Virus record (IMG/VR): IMGVR_UViG_3300045988_155182
Source of the DNA: a virus
Taxonomy: Duplodnaviria; Heunggongvirae; Uroviricota; Caudoviricetes
DNA: 64,000 nucleotides
Direction: 5' to 3' (one strand)
Translations under genes and position numbers: made by a program
Shown here: piece after piece, positions 28,962 to 64,000 of the stretch
Numbering within the stretch: position 1 is the stretch's first letter
Layout of the letters: every line of letters begins with the position of its first letter
The notes under the pieces: generated by a model
Seen by the model: only the letters and a program-made list of their open reading frames with translations
The model's database searches: none
Told to the model about the DNA's origin: nothing

Positions 28962-28964
28962 GTA

Positions 28965-44997: not shown

Positions 44998-44998
44998 T

Positions 44999-46590: not shown

Positions 46591-47010
46591 ATGTTTAGTG
46601 AAATGTTGCTTGAAGATGAACTGGATCGGAAAACAACAGAGGCTTTGATTCGTGTAGCGGACGAACATTCCCGGTCGCTTATGAGCGATCGAGAGGCTCG
46701 TCTGGCTATTCGTGCCATATTCGAAACTGCGCAGGGGCTTGTTGGTACACAAGTGGGTGAAGCCATTAACATCGCCATGTCTCAGTTCAGTGAAGGCAGT
46801 AAAAAGCCTCTGTTTCCTATGCATTTGATGCTGGCTGGTGGCACGGTGCTTTATATCTCTGTTTGTCTGGATAGCAACCAAATCAATATTCTCAACACTG
46901 TGTCAGGTAAGTGGAAAGATCCGATTGTCTGTGAAACCAGTGAAGAAACTTTGAAAAAAGCGGCTCAATTTGTACGTAGCGCACTACTTAAGGGCGCTAA
47001 GAAGTTGTAA
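46591..47010 (+). CDS. Hypothetical protein
   Basis: 139 aa ORF. Confidence 0.35.
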   Translation: MFSEMLLEDELDRKTTEALIRVADEHSRSLMSDREARLAIRAIFETAQGLVGTQVGEAINIAMSQFSEGSKKPLFPMHLMLAGGTVLYISVCLDSNQINILNTVSGKWKDPIVCETSEETLKKAAQFVRSALLKGAKKL

Positions 47011-47019
47011 GGAGTTCTG

Positions 47020-47577
47020 ATGACAACGATTGTTGCAGGCATCGATATCGAGTCTACGGGACTGGATTTCCTTGCTGGTCATAAAATTATTGAAATCGCA
47101 ATTACCCGCTATGAACTGGAGACACAGAGACATATTGATAGTCTGGAGATGCGTTTTAACCCTCGCAGAAACATAGATCCGAAAGCTCAAGCCGTTCATG
47201 GCATTTCATTGGAACAGCTCGCAGCTGAACCTTTGTTGTCAAATCATGCCAGCGAAATTGGCGCTTATATGGGGGCATGTAGTGTGTGGGTTGCTCATAA
47301 CGGCGAAGCATTTGATATACCATTTATTCGACACGAGTTTTCAGGGTATGGAGTAAGACTGCCAGAAGTTCCTGTTATAGATACTATGTTATCGGGATTG
47401 TGGGCCACAGAAGACGGTAAACGTCCCCGCCTTGAAGAGTTGGCCTTCTCTCTTGGCTTTATATACGATCATGCCAAAGCACATAGTGCCTTATATGACA
47501 CAAACTTAATGATGCAATGCTTCTTTAAGGCACGTAATAAGTACGGATTTTTTAAATTACCCTCTGAAATTGTGTAA
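47020..47577 (+). CDS. DnaQ-like 3'-5' proofreading exonuclease (DEDDh)
   Basis: Exo I IDIESTG, GHKIIEIA, Exo II VAHNGEAFDIPF, Exo III HSALYDTNL; closely parallels E. coli Pol III epsilon. Confidence 0.8.
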   Translation: MTTIVAGIDIESTGLDFLAGHKIIEIAITRYELETQRHIDSLEMRFNPRRNIDPKAQAVHGISLEQLAAEPLLSNHASEIGAYMGACSVWVAHNGEAFDIPFIRHEFSGYGVRLPEVPVIDTMLSGLWATEDGKRPRLEELAFSLGFIYDHAKAHSALYDTNLMMQCFFKARNKYGFFKLPSEIV

Positions 47578-47581
47578 AACA

Positions 47582-47620
47582 AAAGCCTACTTTAAAAAGT
47601 TTAAAGTAGGCTTTCTTTTA
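47582..47620 (+). terminator. Rho-independent terminator
   Basis: aaagcctactttaaa aagt ttaaagtaggcttt followed by ctttta. Confidence 0.65.
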
Positions 47621-47735
47621 AAGAACAGTCGCCTTTTAATCATTTCCTGCCTGTATTTAATACTTTTCCGCCTGATAGGTTTAGTCAAAATGTAGCCATC
47701 GAAACGCAAATGTAACCAAACAGAAGGAGACTTAC

Positions 47736-48545
47736 ATGAGTTCGGTTGAAAATGTAATGACAAATGATGATCTGGACGAGCTGACAGCCATGTTGCAATC
47801 ACTTGATGAACCAGTAAAAAAAGCTGCACAGGTTGAAAATACTGATGATATTGACGATCTGCTGCTCGGCCTAGATGCTGGCGTAGCCATGAGTTCTGAT
47901 GATGTTGCCGAAGAACTGTTCAATGAAGAAAAAGCAGGTGATTTCAGCTCTGCTTTAAATGAGTTGGAGTTAGCGCATGAGCCTATAAACGTAATTAACG
48001 CTGAAAGTGTTGAAGCTGCCGAAAACGAGCCAGAACAATTGGGATTTATTGAGGTTGAAGAGTGTGTTGAGGTTAATGATGAATTAAAAGTTCAACAGTC
48101 AAATGATAGCAATACAAATAAAAAAGCTCGTACTGCAAGAGGTCCTCGTTTTACTTTAAGTGATAAAGATGATTCGTTTTTCAATAAAGCGGGCTTAGAA
48201 AAAGATATTTTCTTAGACGCTTACGATAACGCGCCTGTCAAAGCAAAGGATAAGATATTAAACCTTCTTAATTGGTTTAGCGGAGGTCCAGATATTAGTG
48301 TTTACACGGTAATTTCCATGAGACACCTTCTCACAGAAAAGAAGGCTACAAGTAATAGTATTAAGATTGCTTTAATGAGCAATCCAGAAAAACCGTATCC
48401 GCTTAACACTGCGTCAACTCAGGCTGGGCAAATGATGGCTGTATTTCCAGCGACAGGAATTGCCGTTAGAGACGGTGGAAATCTAACATTGAACGAAGAA
48501 TCACCGATCGTTAAGAAGTTTGTCGCGGAGTACACTATTGGATGA
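47736..48545 (+). CDS. Hypothetical acidic protein
   Basis: 269 aa, D/E-rich N-terminal half. Confidence 0.35.
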   Translation: MSSVENVMTNDDLDELTAMLQSLDEPVKKAAQVENTDDIDDLLLGLDAGVAMSSDDVAEELFNEEKAGDFSSALNELELAHEPINVINAESVEAAENEPEQLGFIEVEECVEVNDELKVQQSNDSNTNKKARTARGPRFTLSDKDDSFFNKAGLEKDIFLDAYDNAPVKAKDKILNLLNWFSGGPDISVYTVISMRHLLTEKKATSNSIKIALMSNPEKPYPLNTASTQAGQMMAVFPATGIAVRDGGNLTLNEESPIVKKFVAEYTIG

Positions 48546-48728
48546 CGTTCCCCTACTGAAAATAAAGCCCATAGAGAGCTTTATAGTGCTGGGCAAGCCA
48601 ATCACATACCCAGCACCACAAAAACGCGCCAGAGAGCTTCTCGTTTGCATTTCTGGCGTGTTTTATTTGATTGCCAGACATAAAATCAAATGCAAAAATA
48701 GGTATTTACTTACCTATCGAGAAAGAAG

Positions 48729-49322
48729 ATGATTGCAGCCGAAAAAATCAAACAGCGAAAGCGCGACAACTCTCTTCGTGACCTCTGGAGAACACCTGAC
48801 TGGCTGTTTTCTGCCATTCAACGTTATCTTGGGGTGACATTTGATGTTGACGTTGCCTGCAACAAGGACAATGCAAAGCTGCCTAATTTCATAGGCGTTG
48901 AGCGTGATGCTTTGAAATCTGAATGGGGACAGCCAGGTACAATTGCCTTCCTCAATCCCCCCTACTCCAAAATCTCCCCCTGGATTGATGCGGCTATACG
49001 TGAGCAGGCTCGCGGAGTTACAACAGTGATGCTAATTCCTCAATCCCTAGATACAAAGTGGTATGAGCGTGCAACAGAGTGTGCGAATGAGACGATTATT
49101 CTGTCTGGTGGCCGCGTAGCGTTTGTCGAGCCTGACGTCAATCTGGGTCAGGTAGAAGTAAACATCAACCCAGGTGGCAGTATGCTCGTTGTTTTTCGAG
49201 GATTCTGTCAGGACGCTGGGCACTCTATAAGCAAGATCCCTTTGGACGTCATGAAAAGTCTGGGAGGGTATGATCCTGCGAATGTGATCAGGAAAAAAAG
49301 ACCATCAAAGAAGGCTGCTTAG
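48729..49322 (+). CDS. Phage-type DNA N6-adenine methyltransferase (Dam_N6 family)
   Basis: WRTPDWLF, FDVDVACN and catalytic NPPYS motifs. Confidence 0.7.
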   Translation: MIAAEKIKQRKRDNSLRDLWRTPDWLFSAIQRYLGVTFDVDVACNKDNAKLPNFIGVERDALKSEWGQPGTIAFLNPPYSKISPWIDAAIREQARGVTTVMLIPQSLDTKWYERATECANETIILSGGRVAFVEPDVNLGQVEVNINPGGSMLVVFRGFCQDAGHSISKIPLDVMKSLGGYDPANVIRKKRPSKKAA

Positions 49323-49345
49323 TTTGTTCTGGCGTCTGTAATTAG

Positions 49346-49408
49346 CCTGCTTCTGTATATATAAATAACTACATATTAATTATTAATATACGGAAGCAGG
49401 CTGTTTTG
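49346..49408 (+). repeat. Conserved long hairpin element, copy 2 (terminator-like, after the methyltransferase)
   Basis: cctgcttctgtatatataaata ... tatacggaagcagg followed by ctgtttt; arms match 3730..3791. Confidence 0.6.
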
Positions 49409-49507
49409 TATCAGAGACTCCAGACCTGAACATCACTACAGAATCCACTAGAACCCCTTCCCAGACGCTTTAAAATCGATTTTATGAATCACTTTAAGGA
49501 AACTAAC

Positions 49508-49738
49508 ATGTCATACCCGACTAATGTCGTTGCGCTCGTAGAGAGCGATTTTCTGGCCCAGGCCCGTGAAATGATGAAAGATCGCGAGCAGGCTTTCAAC
49601 TTGTACGAATGGGCAATTAAGTGCTTGCATCTTGGGGAGCATCGCGAACTTGTTGAACAGCTTTTAGGTGAGTTGATCAACGAGGTGTTTGCCTTGAATG
49701 TTCAACTACATGGTCGAGAAAATAATCAATCGAAATGA
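49508..49738 (+). CDS. Hypothetical small protein
   Basis: ATG at 49508 with AAGGA RBS 7 nt upstream. Confidence 0.3.
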   Translation: MSYPTNVVALVESDFLAQAREMMKDREQAFNLYEWAIKCLHLGEHRELVEQLLGELINEVFALNVQLHGRENNQSK

Positions 49739-49744
49739 TAGATA

Positions 49745-50290
49745 AGTACAAACTATTCATAAAGTGAATTGTAAGTGCTAAGATCTGATAGTTTCCAGTC
49801 GTAGACTGGAGACTCGACCTGATGGGTGGGGGTAAGCGTCACTGGCGTCAGGTTTAAAAAAGCTCACTACCAGCGTAGAACCGGTGCCGTTTAGGTGTCG
49901 GGGAAGGGGGAACCAAAGTGAGCGGAGACAAGGGTCACTTTATGATTGTCGAGTCTGGGGTGTTTCGAGAGGTTGAATCCAGTACTCCCCTTCATAAAGT
50001 GTGGGAAGATCTCGGTTCTGGGGTGCTGTCATCCATAACTTCCCAAGTCTAAGCTGGCAGTAGACTTAGGCCATAACTTTTTCAGGTTATGAAACGACCA
50101 GGTTGGTGAGGGATTTTTATACTCACCTCCCTGGGAGAGTATTACCTGAAAAGACAACCTCTCACTTCGTTCGAGGTGAACTTCACTCACTTCGTTCGTT
50201 CAGTTCAGGTTTATAAAAACCTGTTCTGGGAAGTAATTTGTTTATTTTAATAATTATTAACACGCACGCGTGTGCGCACGCGCGAGGAAA
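49745..50290. other. ORF-free, GC-rich structured region with an alternating purine-pyrimidine tract (candidate ncRNA or origin)
   Basis: About 540 bp with no ORF in a gene-dense element; multiple hairpins; cacgcacgcgtgtgcgcacgcgcg at ~50261-50284; short direct repeats ctcacttcgttcg. Confidence 0.3.
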
Positions 50291-50322
50291 AAATCGGCGC
50301 GGCGCTTGATTCAGGAGTTTAT

Positions 50323-50913
50323 ATGACGACGAAGACACCAGCCCGATCGCAAGAAAAAACTCGCAAAAAAGCCAAAAACAAAAATTCTCCCCGCACCAAT
50401 TCCACAACGCCTGTCGTAGAGTTCAATCCCCAGCTTAAAACCGTGAAAATCTTCAGTGATGGCTCTTGCCTTAAAAATCCGGGTGGCCCGGGCGGTTACG
50501 GTATAGTTCTCCAGTATCGTGGTGAGGAACGCGAGTTCTCAGATGGTTTTCATAGCACCACCAATAACCGCATGGAGATGATGGGGGCACTTATCGGGCT
50601 GGAGCGTTTGAAATATCCATGCAACGTTATTTTGCACTCTGATAGCCAGTATCTGAAAAACGGCATGACACAGTGGATGAAATGGTGGAAACGCAATGGA
50701 TGGGTGACTTCTGACAAAAAACCGGTAAAGAATGTTGATCTGTGGAAGCGTCTGGATGAGGCCGCAAGTCGACATAATGTTCGCTGGAAGTGGGTTAAAG
50801 GCCACGCCGGGCATCGTGAAAATGAAATATGTGATCGACTCGCGAAGATCGCAGCTTTTTCCGCAGCAGATATGCCTCACAAGAAAGATATTGGTTTTGT
50901 TTATAACAAATAG
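50323..50913 (+). CDS. rnhA: Ribonuclease HI
   Basis: [18 protein letters not shown]...[10 protein letters not shown]...[21 protein letters not shown]...[13 protein letters not shown]...KGHAGH closely matches E. coli RNase HI; start at the ATG with AGGAG RBS (track start 50272 is GTG). Confidence 0.85.
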
Positions 50914-51061
50914 TAAGTAAGTGTTTACCTATCATTTTAAATCATGTATCTTATCGGCGTCAGGATGACAATGTGTCGGTAAGACACAGTTCCAGGATGG
51001 AACGAGAAAGGCGGCTGGCAATCGCCAGCCGCAACTCTTTCTGACACTGGATGGAGTCCAC

Positions 51062-51556
51062 ATGGCACGTCAAACCTATTTCACTTCTGCAACTAAACGT
51101 CCTCGTTCTTTACGTCAAATTTTGGCCGAATTGTTTAGCGGTCGTGTTATGTCACGTCTTGATGAACTAGAGACTACCGTTCGGTTGCTGAATGAACGTT
51201 TAGATAATCAAGCGTCAGTTGTTGCGAACGTGGGGGCGATTGTTGCCTCTGGTTCTTCACGCGAAGCGAAAAGTACACGGCCTTTAGTGAAGGAGAAAAA
51301 CAACAAGGACAGTTCGAATGGAAAATTTTCAAAGAAAGAGGCTGAAACCAATGGCCTACGTTCTCATTATAGTTTCACTGGCGACGGTAGCCGTTCCAGC
51401 CGGCCAGAGCCTTTTGATGCCGGGTTCATCCATCACCACACCTCCGTCGACGACAATTACCACCACTACAGTAGAGCGTCCTGTCACTCTGGATGGGATG
51501 ACGGTGGATGCGATACCTCAAGTTCATCCAGTTACTCAGGATCATGCTGTGACTAA
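51062..51556 (+). CDS. Hypothetical protein with S/C-rich C-terminus
   Basis: 164 aa ORF. Confidence 0.3.
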   Translation: MARQTYFTSATKRPRSLRQILAELFSGRVMSRLDELETTVRLLNERLDNQASVVANVGAIVASGSSREAKSTRPLVKEKNNKDSSNGKFSKKEAETNGLRSHYSFTGDGSRSSRPEPFDAGFIHHHTSVDDNYHHYSRASCHSGWDDGGCDTSSSSSYSGSCCD

Positions 51557-51565
51557 GGCGGTTGT

Positions 51566-51754
51566 ATGAACTGGTTTTCAAATCACTTTGGAAAAATTTG
51601 GCTGGCAATTCTTGCCCTCATGGCCGCCGGTTGGGTATCGAACATTATAAAACTTGTTTGCTCTGGCGATCTCCAGTTTCAGGCTGGTATGACCTTGGCT
51701 CGTGTTGTTGGGATTTTTGTTTTTCCAGTTGGTTCGGTACTTGGTTATTTCTGA
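51566..51754 (+). CDS. Small membrane protein
   Basis: 62 aa, hydrophobic. Confidence 0.3.
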   Translation: MNWFSNHFGKIWLAILALMAAGWVSNIIKLVCSGDLQFQAGMTLARVVGIFVFPVGSVLGYF

Positions 51755-51847
51755 CGGCTGTTAGTGCATATGCATTGACCATCTCTGCGTAAGCAATTTA
51801 TGTAATTAGAAAACAACTTGTTTTGACAAATAATAAAAGGAAAACAC

Positions 51848-52273
51848 ATGTTAGGTTTCTTCAAAAAGAAAACTCGTAAAGCTGTTATCGAAGTCAAAAA
51901 AATGGAGAACCGTGATGCGGTTGAGGCCACCGTGTGGGGCGCGTACATGATCTCCTATGCCGACGGCACATGTGACGCAAAAGAAATTGCCATTCTTGAG
52001 AAGACAATTGCAGCTCTGCCTGCGTTTTCTCCGTTTGCTGGTGAAATTGCCCAAATGAGCGCCAATATCCGTGCTCGTTACGAAGCGTCCCCTCGTTCTG
52101 CTAATGCACAGGCTATTCGTGAGCTGTCTGATATTGCGGGTACTCCAGAGGCGGTCGATGTTCTGTGTCTGTGCCTTGATATTGCCGATCAGGACGGCAT
52201 TGGTGAACAAGAAGAGCAGGCACTTAAAAAGATCGCCCAGGCGCTTCAGTTGTCACTGGATGCTTATCTCTAA
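51848..52273 (+). CDS. TerB-like domain protein
   Basis: YADGTCDAKEIAILEKTIAALP and later EQEEQALKKIAQALQL resemble the tellurite-resistance TerB fold. Confidence 0.45.
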   Translation: MLGFFKKKTRKAVIEVKKMENRDAVEATVWGAYMISYADGTCDAKEIAILEKTIAALPAFSPFAGEIAQMSANIRARYEASPRSANAQAIRELSDIAGTPEAVDVLCLCLDIADQDGIGEQEEQALKKIAQALQLSLDAYL

Positions 52274-52431
52274 TGCTTGAGAGATTCCGGCTTGTGATCG
52301 TCATTGCTCTTCTGGTGATGGCGGTGTTGGTGGATTTTACGGGAAAGATGATGTCTGTCATTTCTGATGGCGTCCTCATTGGTCTGGCGATCTACTTCGC
52401 TTATCCGCTAGTCCGTAAAGCAACGTGTTAA
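52273..52431 (+). CDS. Small membrane protein (52 aa, below the ORF-track cutoff)
   Basis: ATG overlaps the upstream stop (TAATG); MLERFRLVIVIALLVMAVLV...; terminator follows. Confidence 0.25.
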   Translation: MLERFRLVIVIALLVMAVLVDFTGKMMSVISDGVLIGLAIYFAYPLVRKATC

Positions 52432-52433
52432 TG

Positions 52434-52464
52434 ACAAGGGCCATTTGGCCCTTGTGTTTCGTTG
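52434..52464 (+). terminator. Hairpin terminator
   Basis: acaagggcc attt ggcccttgt followed by gtttcgtt. Confidence 0.5.
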
Positions 52465-52570
52465 ACCGAAATAGAGAGTTTGCACCTTTACGTTTAGCTT
52501 GCTCCCCTTTTATGCCACATCACAATAAAGCCAATAAGAAAACAACTTGTTTAAGCATTAGGAAAAACAC

Positions 52571-53140
52571 ATGTGCAAGAAATGCAAAGCAATAGCTGAT
52601 GAACAAAACGCCTTATTCGAAGAAATGGATGCTAATGAACTGGTCAAAATGTTAGCCATTCTTCGAGGAATAGAAGACGTTTCCATATTTGAGAGAGTGG
52701 TTACAGCACTTAATTTTGAGTCCACCTTTGAAGAGCCAACTCAGGTTGTAGCTTTAGCACATCATTTCGGTGTTCATTATCTTGCTGAAAAAGAGCGCGC
52801 TGATAAGTTGCAGGCGACTTTGGATATGGTGAGCGAGACTCAACGAACTGATGACACTAACAAGAGTGAGGCGATTATTGCCAGCAAAGATCGTGAAATT
52901 GCTGGGCTTAAATCCTCTCTAACGATGTTGATGTCTGCGTTCAATCTTATGTCTTCTCAGGCGGGTTATAAAATGCCATCACTAAACAGCGATGATCCGA
53001 TGGCCGTTCGTCAGCTTTTGGGAGCAATGGCCGACCAACTCGACGACACAAAGAGTCGGCTTGAAGACATGATGCGTGAGTTAAGCCATCGACATAACCT
53101 CGCAACACAGCCACACAAAGCCTTTCAAAGCTCTAATTGA
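52571..53140 (+). CDS. Hypothetical protein
   Basis: 189 aa; AAACAACTTGTTTAA motif and conserved start context upstream. Confidence 0.35.
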   Translation: MCKKCKAIADEQNALFEEMDANELVKMLAILRGIEDVSIFERVVTALNFESTFEEPTQVVALAHHFGVHYLAEKERADKLQATLDMVSETQRTDDTNKSEAIIASKDREIAGLKSSLTMLMSAFNLMSSQAGYKMPSLNSDDPMAVRQLLGAMADQLDDTKSRLEDMMRELSHRHNLATQPHKAFQSSN

Positions 53141-53195
53141 TCTGATATGGCCGCATGATCGGCCATATTGTGTTGATAAAAAACAAGGATGAAAA

Positions 53196-53477
53196 ATGGC
53201 ATACGGTACAGGGATTTACAACAATAAAGGAATTAACGTTACTGGCTTCCTTACTCCTATTTTTTTTCTTGATCGATTTACTGCGTCATCAGGCTCTAAG
53301 ACGTACTCCAATCCGCCACCGGGTAAATCGCTACATGCCGTGTGGTCATTGATGCCTCTTAACAACGACAACTACATTAATTTACCTGTTCCAACAGTTA
53401 CTATTAATGGAAATACGGTTAGTTGGTCAAATTTATATACGGGGCTTGGTTCTTACATATACACATACTGGGGATAA
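53196..53477 (+). CDS. Hypothetical protein (AT-rich cargo)
   Basis: 93 aa, N/T/G/Y-rich. Confidence 0.3.
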   Translation: MAYGTGIYNNKGINVTGFLTPIFFLDRFTASSGSKTYSNPPPGKSLHAVWSLMPLNNDNYINLPVPTVTINGNTVSWSNLYTGLGSYIYTYWG

Positions 53478-53479
53478 TT

Positions 53480-54094
53480 ATGTTCGGGATGTCAATTACT
53501 CAATCAGATGGAAGTTTGTGGATGAGTCCAGAATTTACTCCGCAAAATCTGATTAATAAAGGGACAATGTCTACATCTAAAGGTTCTGTTTTTCAAACAT
53601 CAATCCCATCAAACAAATCATGCTTTTTCTTCATAAAAAGCAGTAATAAGGCGAACATGATGTTTATTCATGAGCATAGTAACGGATACAATGCTCTCAG
53701 ATTGCATCAGGTAAATGGTAGCCCCGGAACAATAACAGTTTATGCTTTTTCTGATATGGTGTTACCACATTCTGGCTATGGCATTGCCATGTATAACAGC
53801 GCAGGCGCAATGGTGTATCACGGTGAGATGATGCCCCTTGATGCGAAACTTATCACTATTTCTGACCCTCAATTTACAATAGATATGGGGTATCCATGTG
53901 CGGTAATGCCTGCTATGGTTGGGGTATATAACTATAGACGAACCGATTACGACAGACCTGTCTATGTAACAATGACAGGTGCAACTGGAAACCAAGTATA
54001 TAACGGTCAATGGTATTCCGGTAATGTCACATGGGATATTAAGAAGATTTATACAAACAAAATTCTGGTGATAAATACCTCCAAGTATGATTAG
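53480..54094 (+). CDS. Hypothetical protein (AT-rich cargo)
   Basis: ATG at 53480 just after the upstream stop; 204 aa. Confidence 0.35.
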   Translation: MFGMSITQSDGSLWMSPEFTPQNLINKGTMSTSKGSVFQTSIPSNKSCFFFIKSSNKANMMFIHEHSNGYNALRLHQVNGSPGTITVYAFSDMVLPHSGYGIAMYNSAGAMVYHGEMMPLDAKLITISDPQFTIDMGYPCAVMPAMVGVYNYRRTDYDRPVYVTMTGATGNQVYNGQWYSGNVTWDIKKIYTNKILVINTSKYD

Positions 54095-54197
54095 CCAATG
54101 CCTTTATTTGAAGGATTGCCTGTTTATTTCTATTTAGTACCTTTTCATTTTTGAAATAATTGCACCATTAAACAAATCACTTCTTAATGGTGCAATT

Positions 54198-55883
54198 ATG
54201 AATACAGCCCTTTCCATCATCGACGATGCCAACTCAAACACTGCTATCGACTATCGGAAGGAAATGAACGTCATCCACGAAATTGTGGCCGAGTGCGAGA
54301 AAGAGATCGCCTTCATGTATCAGGTTCACGACTTCGTTTATGGCGACGAACGCCACAACATGATTAATCGCCTGCTGAGACTAAACCATCGACCAGATGA
54401 AGATCGCTCGCGTTTAAATCGAGGTTGGTTGGATAAAGTCGATCTGGAATGGGTGAAACAGAATATTTGGGCCGAGTACTGGAGGAAGGTCACGGACATG
54501 ACTAACGTTTTGCTGATCATGCCAGCTTCCCGTCGAGATGAGTGGCGCGAGCAGTTTATAGAGGGCAAACAGGAAGTCATCAAAACTGACAGAACCGGCT
54601 ACCAGATGAAGGTTAAAGAGTTCGTTGGTGTACCGGAGTTCAAAGCAGAAACGGTCATACCCACGATGCTTAATTTGCTGAATGACAGGCACAAATATCT
54701 CTCTGAGCGCGTGTATGGCTTGTTTAAGGCGCTGAGTCCTGCGCACAAGACAAATAAGACAAACGGTTTCAGCGAGCGTCTGATAATCGCTGACTGCATT
54801 TCTGATTTCTGGCGGGACAGCGTTAGCGTGAACTATCGCAAAGAGGACTACATCGACGATCTGCGTGTCTTGCTTCATTTCTTCGCGCACAAAGAATTTA
54901 TTACCATCAACCGCACTGCTGAGGTGCTATCAGCTGCGTATCGAGCAAACGACTGCCAGACCGGTGACTGGATGAACGTCGATGGAAATCTGATGCGCGT
55001 GAAGATGTTCAAGAACGGCAACGTTCACTTTGAAATACATCCTGACGTGGCCTGGAAGTTGAATGAGGTGCTGGCTTACAGTATGCCTGCTGCAATCCCC
55101 GCGCCATGCCGAACTGCGCCAAAAACACGGGCACCAAAGCAGTTCGGGTTAATCCAGAAGACGATCTCCGTGCCGGTTCGCACTGCGCTTCGTGACGGGC
55201 GATTGAGCAAAGACAAAGGCGTATGGTACTTCTCTGATTCAGCTCTCCAGAAGTCGCAGGTGGAAGAGCTTGAGCGCACACTGAGCTTCATTGGCGGCGT
55301 GCAGGAGAAAAAGCACTGGCAGTTCCCGTATGACATCGGCCATACGCTAAATACGATTGTGGCTACCGGTTTAATACCGGATACAAAATCACACCAGTTC
55401 TACCCTACCCCACGCTTGATTGCTGAGTACGTTGCCAGAGCCACTGAATTGAAGCCTGGTGAGAAGCTGCTGGAGCCTCAAGCCGGACGTGGGGATCTTC
55501 TGGCCTATATTAACGCCGATCTGGAAGATGTTACCTGCATAGAAATCGCACCTCTCTTCGCTGATATCCTGCGTGGAAAAGGGTATACGAACACGATTTG
55601 CTGCGACTTCATAAAGTGGTCTGAGGACAACGCAGGTTATCAGTTCGACAAAATCGTTATGAACCCGCCGTACTCGCTTGGTCGTCATAGAGAGCACACG
55701 CTGGCTGCGCTGGGGCATCTGAAAGTCGGCGGGCGTCTTGTAGCAGTATTGCCGGGCACTGCGCCAATACTGGACTGGATGACGATGGATAATTACGTTT
55801 ATGCCAGAGGGAAGTCGTTTACCAACGAGTTTGAAGACACAGGGATCACAGTCAGCGTATACGTTTTCAAACGCGTTAAATGA
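54198..55883 (+). CDS. Putative SAM-dependent N6-adenine DNA methyltransferase with a large N-terminal domain
   Basis: C-terminal motif I-like LEPQAGRGDL and catalytic NPPYS; 561 aa. Confidence 0.55.
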   Translation: MNTALSIIDDANSNTAIDYRKEMNVIHEIVAECEKEIAFMYQVHDFVYGDERHNMINRLLRLNHRPDEDRSRLNRGWLDKVDLEWVKQNIWAEYWRKVTDMTNVLLIMPASRRDEWREQFIEGKQEVIKTDRTGYQMKVKEFVGVPEFKAETVIPTMLNLLNDRHKYLSERVYGLFKALSPAHKTNKTNGFSERLIIADCISDFWRDSVSVNYRKEDYIDDLRVLLHFFAHKEFITINRTAEVLSAAYRANDCQTGDWMNVDGNLMRVKMFKNGNVHFEIHPDVAWKLNEVLAYSMPAAIPAPCRTAPKTRAPKQFGLIQKTISVPVRTALRDGRLSKDKGVWYFSDSALQKSQVEELERTLSFIGGVQEKKHWQFPYDIGHTLNTIVATGLIPDTKSHQFYPTPRLIAEYVARATELKPGEKLLEPQAGRGDLLAYINADLEDVTCIEIAPLFADILRGKGYTNTICCDFIKWSEDNAGYQFDKIVMNPPYSLGRHREHTLAALGHLKVGGRLVAVLPGTAPILDWMTMDNYVYARGKSFTNEFEDTGITVSVYVFKRVK

Positions 55884-55944
55884 TAGGTAAATACTTACTT
55901 AATTTGTGTAAGAATGTAATAACTAAACGATAAGAGAAAAACAC

Positions 55945-56649
55945 ATGAACAACCTCCAGTTAGAGCATTTTAACGTCACAGGCCATTCTGATTTTCCTTT
56001 CAAGTTTACATTGAAAGGTTATGCAGAGGATGCGGTAGGCCAGATCATTATTGATAAAGGCATCGTTAAGTTTGAGGGGGATTTTGATGAATCCGCGAAA
56101 ACATTCATAGACTTCGTTGCCAAACGTTGGAGCGAGCAATGGAAAGACCTGGAAAAGCGCGCTAGTGAGTTTGATCGGTTCATGGATGCAATGAATACAG
56201 CAAAAGAGGCTCTTGCTGCCGGGACTCCGTTAGATCTGGAGTCACTTTTCAACGGCGAAGTGGCCTCTGCGATGTTCGCCACCATGTTCGCGGGTGAGTT
56301 CGTCCGCAGCGGTGCCAAAAACTACCTTGAGCTGGATTACAACGTCCCTGCAATTGGCGATTTCGTCGTTACCATCCAACGCAAAGAAGGTAAGACGCCA
56401 GGTGAACGCGTCGCAGAGCTTGAGGCCGTTGTGGATCAGCGTAACGGAGAGTGTGACCGTTTGATCAACGAGCTTCATGCACTTCGGGAAGAAAGAATAT
56501 GCGCGGGTAGCAATACACGTAATGCAGCGGATATCTACTTCCAGTTAGTTGAGGAATGCCAGATTCCACCAGGCGGCTCTCTTGTCGATTACGTCAGACA
56601 TTTAATGACGGAAGTTAACTCCAGCCATAAAGATGGTGAGGTGCGCTGA
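55945..56649 (+). CDS. Hypothetical protein
   Basis: 234 aa; conserved aaaaacacATG start. Confidence 0.35.
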   Translation: MNNLQLEHFNVTGHSDFPFKFTLKGYAEDAVGQIIIDKGIVKFEGDFDESAKTFIDFVAKRWSEQWKDLEKRASEFDRFMDAMNTAKEALAAGTPLDLESLFNGEVASAMFATMFAGEFVRSGAKNYLELDYNVPAIGDFVVTIQRKEGKTPGERVAELEAVVDQRNGECDRLINELHALREERICAGSNTRNAADIYFQLVEECQIPPGGSLVDYVRHLMTEVNSSHKDGEVR

Positions 56650-57029
56650 TGTTTGGCATTGACGCACAGCGTGTAGCCGCTTTTGCAAAAAGCCCTCTTG
56701 ATAATCCCTTGTCTCGTAGTGAGCAAATGGAGCTGGCAAGGCTTTTTCTTCACATTCAAAAACAGGCAGACATTTTCAATAACATGCCTAATCAACCTAT
56801 TCTGGATGGTCACATCCAGATGGTCATTAACAGTCATGAGAAAGGCTGGGCTGCAATCGTCCCCTGCACAATTACATACAAGTTGGCGAAAGAGGTTCAA
56901 GAGTTTCGAAAAGCCAGTGTCGAATCGGAGTCTACCAAAGCCGCAATAAACACTCTTATTCGCATGGGGTTCACATGGACCGGTGGAGCCTACTGGCAAG
57001 CACCTCAACCCATTTTATCCGGCAATTAG
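56649..57029 (+). CDS. Hypothetical protein
   Basis: 126 aa; coupled start. Confidence 0.3.
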   Translation: MFGIDAQRVAAFAKSPLDNPLSRSEQMELARLFLHIQKQADIFNNMPNQPILDGHIQMVINSHEKGWAAIVPCTITYKLAKEVQEFRKASVESESTKAAINTLIRMGFTWTGGAYWQAPQPILSGN

Positions 57030-57167
57030 GCGCTACAAATCCTTCTGCATGAATAAATAAAGGCCATAACTTATGGCCTTAAATAAATTGTTTTCTACCT
57101 TTTCTTATTTGTGAAAATAAACCAGCACTTGGTAGTGCTTATGTAACAGCAAAGAAGAGAAAAACAC

Positions 57168-57668
57168 ATGAGTAACAAAATCGAAAATCCCGTAGTTCTC
57201 ATTCACAAGCGCGAGAACCACGACTCCTATGCGGTGGCGATCACCAATGGGAGTCACGATTTTTACGATGGCCTGCTAATGGCCTCAGTGTCGCCTGATG
57301 AGGCAGATAACTCTTTTGCCGTCTTCGCTATGGTTGGTTACTACATGGCTGCCGAAATTGAGAAGTTGCTGGCGCAAAGAGACGCATTAGCGGCGGAGAA
57401 TGCAGCCCTGAAAGAATCTGAGCGAGCATTCGATGCGATGTGTGCCGAGGAACACGGAGATAATTGGGTTAGCGAATTGACGGAGACTCCAGCCACCGAT
57501 GCTTTTCTGGCTGAAGTACGTGCGCAGGGCGTGGATATGGCTCGTAACGCGATGATTGATTTTGTTGATGGTGAAGTTGGGCCAAACAAGAACGTTCCGG
57601 GGCTGATTAGAGGCGCAGAGATATGCGTAAGTATTGCTGAACAGCTTCGTAAAGGAGTCATCCAGTGA
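57168..57668 (+). CDS. Hypothetical protein
   Basis: 166 aa; conserved aaaaacacATG start. Confidence 0.35.
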   Translation: MSNKIENPVVLIHKRENHDSYAVAITNGSHDFYDGLLMASVSPDEADNSFAVFAMVGYYMAAEIEKLLAQRDALAAENAALKESERAFDAMCAEEHGDNWVSELTETPATDAFLAEVRAQGVDMARNAMIDFVDGEVGPNKNVPGLIRGAEICVSIAEQLRKGVIQ

Positions 57669-58066
57669 GCAAGATTGACTATCAGGCACTGCGTGAGGCG
57701 GCAGAGCGTGCAATTCCGGCAATGGAACGCCTGTTAATGTTGCCAGTTGATGATGATCTGATATGCGAACAGGAACTTAAAGATAGCGGTGTTGATATTG
57801 ATGCCCTCAACGCCTTCAAATTTCTGGCCGGACCAGAAACCGTGCTGGCACTACTGGATGAGATCAACGCATTAGAGGAAACGCGTATCAACGATGTTTG
57901 CCGTATTGCGGAACTAACAAAACAACTGGAGTTGGCAAAATCAAAACTCAACGAGCAGCGTGAGTATTACGAGGGCGTTATCTCGGATGGAAGTAAGCGC
58001 ATAGCCGCTCTTCTTCGCAAGGACAATCTTGCCAGCGCCACGAACATTGAAGGTGAAAGAAAATGA
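57665..58066 (+). CDS. Hypothetical protein
   Basis: GTG start overlapping the upstream stop (GTGA); 133 aa. Confidence 0.3.
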
Positions 58067-58386
58067 CCACATCGCACTCTGCTATTACCCAAGAAAAAGT
58101 CTTCAACATACTCGAACGACTAGAGACGCTCGCTACGGAGGAGGATATATCCCCGGAGAAACTGGTTGAGTTCAGCCGTGTGATATTGCGTCGCAAGAAC
58201 GATATGGAGCGGCTGACATCTGGCGCTCCATCCTTATCAGTCAGGCGAACACTTTGTTGCAGCTTCTGCAACAAATCCCAGTACGCCGTCAAAAAGTTAA
58301 TTGCTGGGGACGCCGTTTTCATCTGCGACGAGTGTGTGGATGTGTGCAACAGAATTATCCGGGGAGAGAAAGAGGGATCAGCATGA
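58063..58386 (+). CDS. Small protein with a C-terminal ClpX-type zinc-binding domain
   Basis: C-terminal 45 aa [39 protein letters not shown] are nearly colinear with the E. coli ClpX N-terminal ZBD ([36 protein letters not shown]). Confidence 0.6.
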
Positions 58387-58913
58387 AATTTTCCAAATTT
58401 TCTGAGTTGGTGAATCGTATTTTGTCCAACAACCACAGCCATCGTCGCGATATGGATGTAACGATCGTTGTTCATTCGCCTGGTCGCATCGGTTCAACAC
58501 CATCAGTTGAGGTTCAGTCAATTCAGGCGGGTTTTGATTGGGATGCCGGGCAAGTGATGATTTTTCCAGCACAGCCACTGACCACGCTAACACCAGAGCA
58601 GGTTGCTGATATCACTGATAGTGTGCGCAAAGGTCAGTCTTGGCACGCGTATCAGGAATACAAGAAGCATAAAGAGCAGTTGGAAAAATTGTCGATGGAG
58701 TTGGAAGGCGCTAAACAGCGGGAAAAAGATCTGTTTATGGAAAATGTTCGACTTAAGTCAGGTATAGCCGGTCTGATACACCTCGGTATTCGATATGCGG
58801 ATGTTGAGGTCATGAAAATTGCTGGAGATGCCCAGCTTTCTACTCCATGCACTGACAGCATCATAAACAGCATTGCAGCAGGCATTTTCACCAAAGAGGG
58901 GGCAGCACGATGA
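58383..58913 (+). CDS. Hypothetical protein
   Basis: ATG overlapping the upstream stop (ATGA); the track ORF 58254..58913 extends upstream in the same frame. Confidence 0.3.
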
Positions 58914-59095
58914 GAACACTAGAGGTTCGCGCTGAAGACGTAATCCCTGGTGATGTGCTCATAACATCTAAAGGTCAACAATGTGCGGTTAAATCTTTTT
59001 GGATGGAAAATGACAAAGTGACTCTGTTCGGTACGGATGGTTCCGAAACTGATTATGACTACGACGAATTGCTTGTTGTTGAGAGAGCTGCCTAA
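58910..59095 (+). CDS. Hypothetical small protein
   Basis: 61 aa, coupled. Confidence 0.3.
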   Translation: MRTLEVRAEDVIPGDVLITSKGQQCAVKSFWMENDKVTLFGTDGSETDYDYDELLVVERAA

Positions 59096-59748
59096 TGACC
59101 ACCGTTAACAATAAGAAATGCTACCCAAGCGAGAAATATCTTAATGAGCTGATCACCAACATTGAGTTTGCTGCAAGAGCACCAGTTGAAGTCGTGAGAG
59201 CGATTGCAGCAGAGCTACAGAAGCACCGTAAGGCCTATGCCAATACAGCCGCATCTAAGGATGGTTGGATAAGCTGTAGTGAGCGAATGCCTGTAATTGG
59301 CGAGCTAAATTGGAGAACTAGTTTTCCTTTACTGGTTACGTGTGAGATCGGCGTTATACCTGCTTATTACGGCTTTGTGAGCGTTAATGGTGATAGGCAT
59401 TATGGCTTTATGGAGAGTCTTAAATACGGAGACGCTAACGGCAACCATCCTCAAACTAATGAATATGGTCTGATTAGCAATGTCACACACTGGATGTCAC
59501 TACCAGAACGCCGCAGGAGTCGAACAGTGAATAATGCAGAGTTATTTCAGAAAATATCGGCTCTCGCGACTGAATGCCACGCTATAGCATCTGAGCTTGA
59601 TGTTGGCGATGAACGAACCGAGATGTTCGAAATATACAGTGTGCTGCGCAATCTCTGTCGGCGTGGCTACGCCACTCAAGTAGGGCGAATGACTAACCCA
59701 CTACTCTCATCCTGTGATGAGGATGACTCGGATGAGGATGACGAATGA
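59095..59748 (+). CDS. Hypothetical protein with acidic C-terminal tail
   Basis: 217 aa ending DEDDSDEDDE. Confidence 0.35.
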   Translation: MTTVNNKKCYPSEKYLNELITNIEFAARAPVEVVRAIAAELQKHRKAYANTAASKDGWISCSERMPVIGELNWRTSFPLLVTCEIGVIPAYYGFVSVNGDRHYGFMESLKYGDANGNHPQTNEYGLISNVTHWMSLPERRRSRTVNNAELFQKISALATECHAIASELDVGDERTEMFEIYSVLRNLCRRGYATQVGRMTNPLLSSCDEDDSDEDDE

Positions 59749-60128
59749 TGCATAAATCAGTAGCCGGTGAGTTTCAGAAGGAAGTCGATAATACTACCGT
59801 TCTATTGGACGATATTTTAAGCATTCTCGCGCTGCTTGAGGCTGGCGATTGGTCAGAACATTGCACTAAAACAGAGCTAGGCGGTCGGCTTGAAAGAGAG
59901 ATTACACGACTGATTAGCGATGCCCAAAATGATTTGTCACCTGAGCATCTCCCCTGCGATGTAGTTCTTGTGCCAGGGATGAGGATACACGAAGGCGTCA
60001 GAACGAAAACATTATTAACCGCATTACAGAGAAGAGCCGAACTAAGCTCGCGGATAAAGTTGATGCCATCCAAAATATTTGATGTCGTCAAATTTACGCC
60101 ATCGCAACATACTGAGAGAGATAAATGA
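59745..60128 (+). CDS. Hypothetical protein
   Basis: 127 aa, coupled. Confidence 0.3.
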   Translation: MMHKSVAGEFQKEVDNTTVLLDDILSILALLEAGDWSEHCTKTELGGRLEREITRLISDAQNDLSPEHLPCDVVLVPGMRIHEGVRTKTLLTALQRRAELSSRIKLMPSKIFDVVKFTPSQHTERDK

Positions 60129-60751
60129 GCACGGTAGCGAAAGATCTCACAGAAGATATTCTCAATGAAATTATTGCTGGTGCAAATACCTCGCTTGAGC
60201 AACTTCTTGCGTTAGCACTGATAGCCGAACGTCGAGACAGAAATCGTTTTTATGAGCGATTACCAGGGAAGCGACCAGATAGATCGGATGAAGAAGGTTG
60301 CGATATAGACTACATGGAGCCTTCAGAGATTTATCAACTTGGTAAAGATGACGGCTGGAACGCTTATCACGATGCTGTGATGAAGTTGGATGAAAAAGTT
60401 AAACCTCTTTCTCGACCGGTAGATCACGGTTTCCGCGATAACTGCGAATGCTCTAGTTGCCAGACCACGGCCCGTATTTGTTCCGAATTGACAGATAAGT
60501 CCAGCCTAATCTACGAAGTTAATGTAGGCGGTAATACATGGGTCGAATGCACAAGAGCTGCATACGTAAGAGCAAAAGACAAGGGTGAATTAACCAGAGT
60601 TGTTGCCCATCACCCAAATAATGAGCTTAAAGATCACCAGATTAGAGAACTGGTGAACGAGTTGCGGGATATTGCGGTTCAGTACCACGGAACGCAGCAA
60701 TTGCGGGAGAAAATTGCCAGAGCAGTGAACAACTCAGTCCGTAAAAAATAA
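60125..60751 (+). CDS. Hypothetical protein
   Basis: 208 aa; last gene of the long plus-strand block. Confidence 0.35.
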   Translation: MSTVAKDLTEDILNEIIAGANTSLEQLLALALIAERRDRNRFYERLPGKRPDRSDEEGCDIDYMEPSEIYQLGKDDGWNAYHDAVMKLDEKVKPLSRPVDHGFRDNCECSSCQTTARICSELTDKSSLIYEVNVGGNTWVECTRAAYVRAKDKGELTRVVAHHPNNELKDHQIRELVNELRDIAVQYHGTQQLREKIARAVNNSVRKK

Positions 60752-60964
60752 GCAATAGTACGATAAAGAGGCCCCATGCTCTTGATGGGGCCTGTAGCAA
60801 CTAGCGTTATGGACGCTGGTTTACGTACTCAATGATCGCTTTGATAATCGCGAACATCGGCGGCACGATTTTGAACAGTAAGTTAACCATAACAGGCCTC
60901 ACTTAGTTTTATCGCGCCTAGCTGCAAATACCTTTGGGCTTGCCTTTGCAGTTGCAATATCTGT

Positions 60965-61153
60965 AGTCGCCAGATACTTACGGCACGATTTCGAGTTAAG
61001 GTAAGGTTTTAGAGTCACCAAAAACCTGGACTTAAATCTTCTTTGAGAACAACGATGTTTAGTAAATGGTCATTATTACCTGGTATGACCACTCAACCTT
61101 TCTTGATGAATCCAGTACATTCGGTTAATCTTAATTCAGTCGCCAGATACTTA
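60965..61153. repeat. Pair of 16-bp direct repeats (AGTCGCCAGATACTTA) 173 bp apart in the ORF-free junction region
   Basis: Exact copies at 60965-60980 and 61138-61153; the second is followed by two tandem hairpin plus T-tract terminators (61161-61190, 61192-61222). Confidence 0.5.
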
Positions 61154-61516
61154 TGGCTCAGGAACAGAGCCGCAAACTCTGTTTCCTTTTAAAAAGCCCA
61201 GCCTAGTCAACTGGGCTTTTTAATGTCTATTTTTAACCCAACATACCCTCAATACTGCAACATCAGTGTCTTGCGAATTAAGATAGTGTGAATAGATTTT
61301 TCATGCAAGTGCATAAGCCTGTGGATAACTCAGGAAGGAAAAAGTGACTTCTGCGCACTTTAGACCGGACAAGGCGTTCGAAAAAGTCAATGGGAAGAAA
61401 AAATTTGTTAAAAATAACGTTTGTTTGAATTGTATATATTTATGCCTTTCAATAGTTAGCATCTTATTAACATCTTTTTTAAGAGATAGAGTTCAAAAAT
61501 ATATAGCTTCAATATA

Positions 61517-61536
61517 TACTGTATGTGTATACAGTA
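61517..61536 (+). promoter_or_regulatory. LexA (SOS) box upstream of the UmuD'-like gene
   Basis: tactgtatgtgtatacagta = CTGT-N8-ACAG palindrome, 16 bp upstream of the ATG, with AAGAGG RBS between. Confidence 0.65.
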
Positions 61537-61552
61537 TTAAGAGGCGAGTATT

Positions 61553-61942
61553 ATGGGCTTCCCTTCTCCTGCGGCGGATTATGCTGAGAGCCGTATTTCT
61601 CTTGATCAGCAGATAATTAGACATCCTTCAGCGACCTACTTCATGAGGGCAGCTGATAGTCATCATCGTGAGGGAATATTACAGGGTGCATTGCTGGTGG
61701 TCGATTCCTCACTTACCCCGGTTGATGGTTCTCTGCTTGTATGCGCTCTGGATGGGGAATATCGCGTAAAAAGATACCGGAAGTACCCACGTCAGCATCT
61801 GGAGGATTTAAGAACCGGTAAGAAGGAAGCATTGCCAAAGGATGACGATGGATGCACGGGCAGCAATGCCGTGTTTGGTGTGATCACTCACATTATCAAC
61901 GACGCAAGAAGTGGCGAGTTTGATGATTGTCCCGTGATGTAG
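61553..61942 (+). CDS. UmuD'-like protein (S24 peptidase fold, HumD-type, encoded already in the processed form)
   Basis: Begins MGFPSPAADYAE, which corresponds to UmuD immediately after its Cys-Gly self-cleavage site; conserved Ser (ADSHH) and Lys (GEYRVKRYR) positions present; no umuC follows. Confidence 0.8.
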   Translation: MGFPSPAADYAESRISLDQQIIRHPSATYFMRAADSHHREGILQGALLVVDSSLTPVDGSLLVCALDGEYRVKRYRKYPRQHLEDLRTGKKEALPKDDDGCTGSNAVFGVITHIINDARSGEFDDCPVM

Positions 61943-61953
61943 GAGAACTGATT

Positions 61954-61979
61954 AGGCGGTGCAATGCACCGCCTTTTTA
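61954..61979. terminator. Hairpin terminator between the UmuD'-like gene and the convergent mrp gene
   Basis: aggcggtgc aa tgcaccgcct followed by ttttat; abuts the mrp stop codon. Confidence 0.6.
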
Positions 61980-63080
61980 TCACACTGCGCGGAATGCGAT
62001 TTCGCTAGGTATTACTTCACCTTGCCAATACATTTGGGCAGCAACGCGATCTGCGAGGTCACGATAAATAGCTGTAAATTCGCTATCTGGACGACTAATA
62101 ACGGTTGGTGTTCCGTTATCCAGATCTTCACGAAGAGAGATATGAAGTGGCATTTGGCCTAACAACTGCGTGTTGTATTTCTCGGCCAGTTTCTGTGCGC
62201 CACCGGTGCCAAAAATTGGCTCGTGATGACCGCAGTTACTGCAAATATGCACACTCATGTTTTCGACGATACCCAGTACCGGCACTTCGACTTTTTCGAA
62301 CATCACAATGCCTTTCTTCGCATCGATCAGCGCGATGTCTTGCGGCGTAGTTACCACAACCGCACCAGTTACAGGAATGTTCTGCGCCAGCGTCAACTGA
62401 ATATCACCAGTGCCCGGCGGCATATCGAGAACGAGATAGTCCAGATCAGGCCATAGAGTTTCCTGCAACATCTGCATCAGCGCCTTGCTGGCCATCGGTC
62501 CACGCCACACCATTGCATTGTCGTCGGTGACCAGATAACCAATAGAGTTGGTTGCCAGGCCATGAGACATGATAGGTGCCATGTGAGTACCGTCAGGTGA
62601 GGTTGGACGTTGGTTTTCCGCGCCCAGCATGGTTGGAATTGATGGCCCATAGATATCGGCATCCAAAATACCAACTTTCGCACCTTCAGCAGCCAACGCC
62701 AGTGCCAGGTTTACCGCCGTTGAGGATTTACCCACGCCGCCCTTGCCTGAGCTGACGGCGATAATGTTCTTAACGCCATTAATGCCTGGTTGGTTTTTGA
62801 CGCGCTTAAGCGTGGCAATGTTGTACGACAGCTTCCAGTCAATAGCCTTTGCGCCAGTGATACGGAGCAGATCACCACTACATTGCTCTTTCAGGTCTTC
62901 AAAAGGCTTATTCCACACGAAAGGCATGATTAGTTCGACATGCAGTGTGTCATCCATCAACGCAACATGGTGTAACGCTTTAAGCGTAGTCAGGTTGTGT
63001 TTCAGGGTTTGGTGCTGAAAATTAGCCAGCGTACCGGCTACCATTGCTCTCAGGGCATCCGGCGATTTGGACTCGCTCAT
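61980..63080 (-). CDS. apbC: Fe-S cluster carrier ATPase Mrp/ApbC (chromosomal housekeeping gene)
   Basis: 366 aa; deviant Walker A SGKGGVGKSST, C-terminal CSNCGH motif; typical divergent arrangement with metG. Confidence 0.9.
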   Translation of the reverse strand: MSESKSPDALRAMVAGTLANFQHQTLKHNLTTLKALHHVALMDDTLHVELIMPFVWNKPFEDLKEQCSGDLLRITGAKAIDWKLSYNIATLKRVKNQPGINGVKNIIAVSSGKGGVGKSSTAVNLALALAAEGAKVGILDADIYGPSIPTMLGAENQRPTSPDGTHMAPIMSHGLATNSIGYLVTDDNAMVWRGPMASKALMQMLQETLWPDLDYLVLDMPPGTGDIQLTLAQNIPVTGAVVVTTPQDIALIDAKKGIVMFEKVEVPVLGIVENMSVHICSNCGHHEPIFGTGGAQKLAEKYNTQLLGQMPLHISLREDLDNGTPTVISRPDSEFTAIYRDLADRVAAQMYWQGEVIPSEIAFRAV

Positions 63081-63237
63081 CCCGTCTCCTTTATTTTAAT
63101 TTGCGCAATTGTCGCCTTGTAGTGTACTCCAGCTACGACATTTAATCATTTATGAGAAATGCTGTTATCACATGGCAGACATAAGGCCATTTTGTTACTA
63201 TCAAGCCCCTTTTCACTACAAAGAAGTAATGCCTACT

Positions 63238-64000
63238 ATGACCCAAGTCGCGAAGAAAATTCTGGTGACGTGCGCGCTGCCGTACGCTAACGGCTCAATC
63301 CACCTCGGCCATATGCTGGAGCACATCCAGGCTGATGTCTGGGTTCGTTACCAGCGAATGCGCGGCCACGAGGTTAATTTCATCTGTGCCGACGATGCCC
63401 ACGGTACGCCGATCATGCTGAAAGCGCAGCAGCTTGGTATCACACCGGAGCAGATGATTGGCGAAATGAGTCAGGAACACCAGACTGATTTCGCAGGCTT
63501 TAACATCAGCTATGACAACTATCACTCGACGCACAGCGAAGAGAACCGTCAGTTGTCTGAGCTTATCTATACTCGCCTGAAAGAGAACGGTTTTATTAAA
63601 AACCGCACTATCTCTCAGTTGTACGACCCGGAAAAAGGCATGTTCCTGCCGGATCGTTTTGTAAAAGGCACCTGCCCGAAATGTAAAGCGCCAGATCAAT
63701 ACGGCGATAACTGTGAAGTCTGCGGCGCGACCTACAGCCCGACTGAACTGATCGAGCCGAAATCGGTGGTTTCTGGCGCTACCCCGGTAATGCGTGATTC
63801 CGAACACTTCTTCTTTGATCTGCCTTCTTTCAGCGAAATGTTGCAGGCATGGACCCGCAGCGGCGCGTTGCAGGAGCAGGTGGCGAACAAAATGCAGGAA
63901 TGGTTTGAATCCGGCCTGCAACAGTGGGATATCTCCCGAGATGCGCCTTACTTCGGTTTTGAAATTCCGAACGCGCCGGGCAAATATTTCTACGTCTGGC
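63238..64000 (+). CDS. metG: Methionyl-tRNA synthetase, 5' portion (gene continues beyond the window)
   Basis: [46 protein letters not shown]... with HIGH-type motif (SIHLGH) and zinc knuckle CPKC...C..CG; no stop before the window end. Confidence 0.9.

Follow-up and report, generated by a model that had tools for sequence, protein, structure and literature searches.

The humD gene (61553..61942, plus strand), found in the 64,000-nt viral sequence analysed here (the window), encodes a 129-aa HumD-family protein, an analogue of UmuD' produced without the N-terminal arm, and is preceded by a LexA operator sequence. By its sequence context, humD is an accessory gene of a Cyrano-like (SSU5-type) E. 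coli phage-plasmid. The humD module quite probably supplies a LexA-controlled subunit in the UmuD' form for the polymerase V of the host. The gene, the family model, the exact protein and the element are already known from public databases and the literature.

The humD gene and its product

The open reading frame of humD begins at 61553 and its product has the N-terminus MGFPSPAADYAESRIS; an earlier note on this DNA had set the start of the gene at 61517, a position at which the LexA box begins and not the gene. A TAA codon is present in the humD frame at 61538-61540, five codons 5' of the ATG ('...CIQY*EASIMGFPSP'), and a search for an alternative ATG, GTG or TTG between this codon and the humD ATG found none. 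An upstream in-frame start, which would have spoken against a truncated protein, is thus absent, and a full-length UmuD form with an N-terminal arm is excluded. The Shine-Dalgarno sequence AAGAGG (61539..61544, plus strand), read off the sequence, is located 8 nt 5' of the ATG and is predicted to be a good ribosome-binding site. The gene lies between a non-coding stretch of 800 bp and the convergent apbC gene, which is the next gene after humD, and no umuC-type gene shares an operon with it. Its intrinsic terminator (61954..61979, plus strand) is composed of a 9-bp G+C-rich stem (61954..61974) and a subsequent T run, and ends one base before the stop codon (61980..61982) of apbC. Together with the candidate promoter and the operator described below, humD and this terminator constitute a complete module.

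Comparison with NCBIfam models showed that residues 1-129 of the humD product align with profile positions 1-129 of 129 of the equivalog NF051876 ("HumD family translesion DNA polymerase"), with a score of 219.8 bits (E 8e-66; cutoff 120 bits). Peptidase_S24 was the only Pfam domain detected. The model NF007621 (pol V autoproteolytic subunit of the UmuD/MucA/RumA type) gave 87 bits compared to a cutoff of 110 bits, and an autoproteolytic precursor of that type was ruled out by this score, by the lack of an arm and by the lack of a Cys/Ala-Gly cleavage site. The LexA model gave 27 bits compared to a cutoff of 111 bits and matched the C-terminal domain only; an S24 repressor of the LexA/CI type was ruled out by the S24 domain standing alone, with no N-terminal DNA-binding domain. 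A tblastn search against phage genomes showed 100% identity to Escherichia phage Cyrano (CYRAN_98), 91.5-93% identity to P1, RCS47, SJ46 and D6, and 66-71% identity to the proteins of phiKO2, N15 and HK140, other phage matches being weaker.

In a direct alignment, the humD product starts at the position of UmuD Gly25, which is the first residue of UmuD', and Ser36 and Lys73 align with the catalytic Ser60 and Lys97 of UmuD. This bears out the claim of the earlier note that the protein (MGFPSPAADY at its start) begins where UmuD is cleaved. The best PDB matches were UmuD' (1UMU, 1I4V, and 1AY9) and UmuD in 8GMT, with residue 2 of the humD product aligned to residue 1 of 1UMU. The S24 fold is common to HumD and E. 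coli UmuD' (1UMU, 1AY9, 1I4V, and 8GMT), which are 44% identical, HumD differing by four inserted residues and by a C-terminus that is longer by about 10 residues. Whereas E. coli UmuD' is obtained through RecA-mediated cleavage of a 139-aa precursor, this HumD is made directly and is not encoded in a umuC operon.

The HumD protein of P1 (AAQ14181.1) is likewise 129 aa long, starts with MGFPSPAADY and showed 91-92% amino acid and 85.5% DNA identity to the protein and gene described here. With the full-length NF051876 match, this agrees with the earlier proposal of a pre-processed UmuD' of the P1 HumD type, and the alignments support the view that the humD product is a pre-truncated UmuD' analogue of that type. 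In every feature that can be tested on sequence, it is a member of the HumD family. UmuD'-type function, including dimerization, binding to UmuC and to the RecA filament, and restored SOS mutagenesis, was reportedly shown for P1 HumD by McLenigan and colleagues in 1999 (J Bacteriol 181:7005, cited in PMC4713147 and PMC11541004). In the GenBank record of P1, the entry for HumD reads 'DNA repair; functionally complements E. coli UmuD''. The Cyrano-type HumD may be expected to replace UmuD' in the same way, that is, in forming the dimer, in binding UmuC and the RecA filament, and in SOS mutagenesis.

The proteins gp26 of N15, Gp23 of phiKO2 and gp28 of HK140, with 66-73% identity to this HumD, share the truncated architecture, the C-terminal SGEFDDCPV tail and a LexA box upstream of the gene, but they have Thr at the position of UmuD Ser60, where this HumD has Ser. 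The three genes adjoin dinI and sopAB or an integrase gene. MucA, RumA, and ImpA are made as full-length precursors that contain a cleavage site and, to our knowledge, are always paired with a Y-family polymerase of their own (MucB, RumB, and ImpB). MucA of pKM101, RumA of R391, and ImpA are SOS-controlled UmuD-family proteins of mobile elements (PMC8460599, PMC7092418).

A survey of the family in public genomes gave 561 cluster representatives, of which 120 were listed, mostly from Escherichia, Citrobacter, Klebsiella, Enterobacter, Salmonella, and Kluyvera. Nothing precedes MGFPSP in 110 of the 120 representatives listed, and the other 10 are longer, apparently because their starts were called too far upstream; in at least four, the translation runs through the LexA box. 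The nucleophile position equivalent to Ser36 is occupied by Ser in 76 and by Thr in 43 of the 120 listed, and the equivalent of Lys73 is present in 118. The variation between Ser and Thr would fit a protein that has no further need of self-cleavage and is uninformative on lesion bypass. The dN/dS ratio was 0.05 compared to P1 humD (dS 0.80) and 0.04 compared to the phage PhiR41_1, and the coding sequence is thereby under strong purifying selection. In PLSDB, 650 plasmids were found to contain humD, about 190 of the Cyrano type (≥90% identity) and 457 of the P1 type (80-90%).

The LexA operator and the upstream region

The LexA operator (SOS box) TACTGTATGTGTATACAGTA is located at 61517..61536 and agrees with the palindromic consensus TACTG(TA)5CAGTA at 18 of 20 positions, i.e., with two mismatches. 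The distance from the box to the humD ATG is 16 nt, as the earlier note had stated. It is the sole site with three or fewer mismatches in the window, and no such site was found in 100 dinucleotide-preserving shuffles. In the K-12 sequence fetched for comparison, the umuDC operator also has two mismatches and is located 20 nt 5' of umuD, which puts the operators of umuDC and humD in the same strength class. A sigma-70-like promoter candidate was detected at 61492..61520 (plus strand), with a -35 hexamer TTCAAA (61492..61497), a 17-nt spacer and a -10 hexamer TATACT (61515..61520) that overlaps the left arm of the LexA box. This pair agrees with 9 of 12 consensus positions, a weak match, and promoter-like pairs in the humD region were no commoner than in shuffles; by its position, TTCAAA-17-TATACT is a plausible humD promoter. 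The operator sequence points to binding of LexA at 61517..61536 and to SOS induction of humD.

In both P1 and the element described here, the LexA box stands immediately upstream of humD (19 nt in P1, 16 nt here), umuC is lacking and the carrier is a phage-plasmid, although the P1 element (a myovirus) is unrelated to the SSU5-type siphovirus phage-plasmid studied here. The homology to P1 on DNA level extends from the LexA box to the stop codon of humD, with unrelated flanks. According to the P1 GenBank record, the LexA site 19 nt upstream of humD is common to the divergent lxr gene; a divergent lxr homologue was looked for and is absent here, the P1 homology beginning at the box. The upstream hot and the downstream phd-doc of P1 are also absent around humD here. 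The spacer of the P1 box (TACTGTATAAATGAACAGTA) is AAATG compared to GTGT in this element.

Corresponding boxes were found in N15 (TACTGTATAAAAAAACAGTT) and in phiKO2 (TACTGTATGCATATACAGTA), where the box is an annotated lexA site in the phage record, and HK140 has a LexA box 5' of a two-gene operon. In two Cyrano-like elements, the plasmid pIso00225_02 and the phage PhiR41_1, the ATG is preceded at a distance of 16-18 nt by a LexA box, and the DNA upstream of humD in both is wholly different from that of the window. Since the box is present in Cyrano-like elements with unrelated upstream DNA, the humD operator has been kept while its surroundings were reshuffled.

A second LexA-type box, TACTGTTTACTTATACAGTG, was detected at 13561..13580. 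It has both CTGT/ACAG cores, agrees with the consensus at 16 of 20 positions and lies 26 nt 5' of the ATG of a tyrosine-recombinase ('integrase') gene (13607..14710, plus strand). This box is kept in Cyrano (41044..41063), and the two boxes, at humD and at the recombinase gene, are the only such sites in the whole element; for the CTGT/ACAG core pattern alone, 0.78 occurrences per window are expected by chance.

Several features were observed in the non-coding stretch upstream of humD, a block of 800 bp that is missing from some Cyrano-like elements. About 150 bp (61280..61445, with the minus strand as sense) showed, in all 5426 complete genomes, 82-84% identity to the promoter region of E. 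coli nrdA, which is annotated ypaB. The fragment contains the paired DnaA boxes TTATCCACA and TTATGCACT, and part of it is what we take to be the -35 and -10 region of the nrdA promoter. It points away from humD, towards a two-way hairpin (61200..61217), and could drive a minus-strand RNA of approximately 100 nt. The same nrdA-like fragment is present in P1 in the upfN/upfO region, upstream of hot and lxr. A sub-threshold Rfam match to AgrB (61143..61224, plus strand; 27.6 bits compared to a gathering score of 40) ends in the same hairpin. The part of the spacer from 60752 to 61260 contains a 16-nt direct repeat, AGTCGCCAGATACTTA, at 60966 and 61139, and a minus-strand ORF from 60902 to 60807, encoding a hydrophobic peptide of 31 aa and followed by its own terminator (60793..60769). 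Six small ORFs of the spacer gave no match to NCBIfam models. The layout resembles a type I toxin-antitoxin or small-RNA pair of the dinQ/agrAB kind, a reading that is unproven, the AgrB match being sub-threshold and the alignment of the spacer with K-12 dinQ-agrAB poor.

The phage-plasmid and the apbC-metG cassette

The window (1..64000) was found to be collinear from end to end with positions 28632..91758 of Escherichia phage Cyrano at 96-99% identity. Cyrano is a 108-kb phage-plasmid, and its map contains terminase, capsid, tail, ParA/ParB and RepA genes in addition to a large DNA-metabolism block. It is identical to pLF82, the plasmid of the adherent-invasive E. coli strain LF82, and was described as an SSU5-like phage-plasmid with about 5.5 copies per cell, for which siphovirus particles were seen (PMC9928086). 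In Cyrano, humD is annotated as 'LexA-like peptidase S24' and apbC as 'MinD'. A stretch of 1.3 kb covering humD together with the end of apbC recurs with 99.6-99.8% identity on over 100 plasmids of E. coli (about 106-120 kb), where the RefSeq names are 'S24 family peptidase' or 'HumD family translesion DNA polymerase', and apbC, and most of this stretch is present in 107 of the 5426 complete E. coli genomes.

The complete apbC (mrp) gene (61980..63080, minus strand) is convergent to humD and is followed by metG (63238..64000, plus strand), which is cut by the end of the window. According to the earlier note, humD was the last gene before a chromosomal mrp terminator, and the element would then be integrated beside chromosomal mrp with humD as its terminal gene. 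In the E. coli chromosome, apbC and metG are indeed arranged in the same divergent way, and ApbC shares 345 of 369 residues with K-12 Mrp and matched the ApbC equivalog with 757 bits (cutoff 348 bits). However, the window is collinear with the 108-kb phage-plasmid through both of its ends, and in Cyrano approximately 15 kb of further phage-plasmid genes follow metG; the linear Cyrano record goes on for about 15-19 kb, with many genes, beyond humD, apbC, and metG. The humD-apbC junction is also present, at 99.6-99.8% identity, on the more than 100 plasmids (around 110 kb) mentioned above. The DNA identity of apbC-metG to K-12 is 85% in the window and 89% in Cyrano, and the K-12 homology runs from the apbC stop codon, beginning at 61984, to the metG stop codon. 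The hairpin 3' of humD is not a chromosomal mrp terminator, as the earlier note had it, because it is outside this block, and no counterpart of it was found downstream of mrp in K-12. A chromosomal junction is a barely credible reading and is on these comparisons refuted for the sequence in hand. On the phage-plasmid, apbC-metG is a complete captured cassette of chromosomal type, carried as cargo. Genes for a methionyl-tRNA synthetase and an Fe-S carrier protein are not what a phage usually carries.

The DNA-metabolism genes of the element include those for a DnaE-type polymerase of 1172 aa (19274..22792, plus strand), an epsilon-like exonuclease (47020..47577), and a RecA-like protein of 357 aa (27595..28668). 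For the DnaE-type polymerase, the Pol III alpha model gave the better score (675 bits) and the model of the error-prone DnaE2 the lower one (403 bits), each under its cutoff. Residues 1053-1168 of this polymerase showed a weak match, far below cutoff, to family-4 uracil-DNA glycosylase (E 5e-7), which hints at a fused UDG-like domain at its C-terminus. The RecA-like gene is annotated in Cyrano as a CDS of 2340 bp; compared to the window, Cyrano contains an extra 1.26 kb (55257..56519), inserted at window positions 27784..27786, and this difference suggests an intein or homing element that is present in one genome and absent from the other.

A gene at 58063..58386 (plus strand), one of the small accessory genes that make up an Ead/Ea22-like block, encodes a protein of 107 aa, in which an N-terminal part of unknown kind is joined to a ClpX C4 zinc-finger (PF06689, E 1.3e-15). 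For the region that contains it (57698..58712), megablast found no match in Cyrano. In UmuD/UmuD' heterodimers, UmuD' is removed by the protease ClpXP, and a link between the zinc-finger protein and HumD is conceivable.

Role of HumD and alternative explanations

No umuC gene adjoins humD, as the earlier note had observed, and the search for a Y-family enzyme was extended to the rest of the element. K-12 UmuC was used in tblastn, UmuC and DinB in phmmer, and an HMM was built from UmuC and DinB, the targets being the six-frame segments of at least 50 aa from the 64-kb window and from the complete Cyrano genome. No homologue of UmuC or DinB above 10 bits was found in either sequence by any of the three methods, and the 126 annotations of Cyrano include no Y-family enzyme. 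The alternative offered in the earlier note, a partner polymerase encoded elsewhere on the element, found no candidate of this family, the DnaE-type replicase being the polymerase encoded there. Host umuC was found in 5423 of 5426 complete E. coli genomes; a partner is therefore practically always available in the host, and UmuC of the host is the likely partner of HumD.

In an undamaged cell, LexA of the host would occupy the box overlapping the -10 hexamer and keep humD switched off. Upon DNA damage, RecA filaments on single-stranded DNA would provoke the self-cleavage of LexA, and humD would be transcribed alongside the umuDC operon of the host. Since its product already corresponds to UmuD', HumD would bypass the RecA-mediated cleavage of UmuD, a slow step that delays polymerase V. 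HumD would then dimerize and join host UmuC, with RecA filaments and ATP, in an active mutagenic polymerase for lesion bypass, by which damaged DNA of host and plasmid could be replicated, and bypass may be earlier or stronger in cells carrying the element. For LexA binding, induction, and the partnership with UmuC, we infer this scheme from P1 HumD, which is 92% identical, and from established knowledge of polymerase V. P1 HumD was reportedly poorly expressed in the work of McLenigan and colleagues from 1999, with good complementation obtained only from a high-copy plasmid, and this result counts against the scheme.

The main rival to HumD as a polymerase V subunit, and in our view a rather unlikely one, is that HumD mainly modulates the SOS machinery of the host, through UmuD heterodimers and their turnover by ClpXP, through cleavage of UmuD in trans, or by damping of RecA filaments. 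If true, this would mean an altered UmuD checkpoint, or an effect on prophage induction or recombination. Such a role would be consistent with the retention of Ser36 and Lys73 in the P1/Cyrano branch in spite of the missing self-cleavage site, with the near invariance of Lys73 among the representatives listed, and with the frequent position of humD beside dinI, a gene for a modulator of RecA filaments, in phiKO2 and HK140. Intermolecular cleavage of UmuD and the preferential formation of UmuD/UmuD' heterodimers are both established and count in the same direction. However, the presence of Thr as nucleophile in N15, phiKO2, HK140, and 43 of the 120 representatives listed argues against a conserved protease role, and P1 HumD is on record as complementing UmuD'. 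HumD could also belong to a small SOS regulon owned by the element and shared with the recombinase, in which, instead of simply providing a polymerase V subunit, it would serve the DnaE/epsilon/RecA-like machinery or manipulate host UmuD; this idea is raised because only two good LexA boxes exist, preceding humD and the recombinase gene at 13607, and we consider it improbable.

That HumD works with the element's own DnaE-type polymerase, epsilon-like exonuclease and RecA-like protein instead of host UmuC is possible but unsupported, and seems very improbable. All three proteins are encoded by the element, UmuD and UmuD' interact with Pol III through its alpha, epsilon, and beta subunits, and humD of P1 is near hot, which encodes a homologue of the Pol III theta subunit. 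HumD is, however, also present in N15-like and lambdoid phages, and the complementation of UmuD' recorded for the P1 protein again stands against this reading. We know of no DnaE-type replicase in P1 or in the N15-like and lambdoid phages with humD, and the function of the HumD family thus cannot depend on such an enzyme. Truncated and unannotated humD fragments (query residues 45-128), found at the ends of Stx2 phages and in mEp234, would be in keeping with humD being a decaying remnant without current function, but the full-length ORF in this element is intact, with Shine-Dalgarno sequence, operator, and terminator, its dN/dS is 0.04-0.05, and the operator is kept across mosaic upstream regions; we give this explanation next to no credence. 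The supply of a ready-made UmuD' to host polymerase V thus stands as the preferred explanation of the humD module.

P1 HumD is the experimentally characterized prototype of the HumD family, for which NCBIfam provides a curated equivalog; annotated copies number in the hundreds, and RefSeq lists the exact protein described here under the family name. What was believed of this DNA is corrected in two points: apbC-metG is phage-plasmid cargo, and no Y-family polymerase is encoded on the element, host UmuC being the expected partner of HumD. LexA-controlled, ready-made UmuD' genes are present in three unrelated lineages of phage-plasmids (P1, N15/phiKO2, and SSU5/Cyrano) and in some lambdoid phages. 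The retention of the operator amid shuffled flanks suggests a real, still undefined benefit of these genes for temperate phages.
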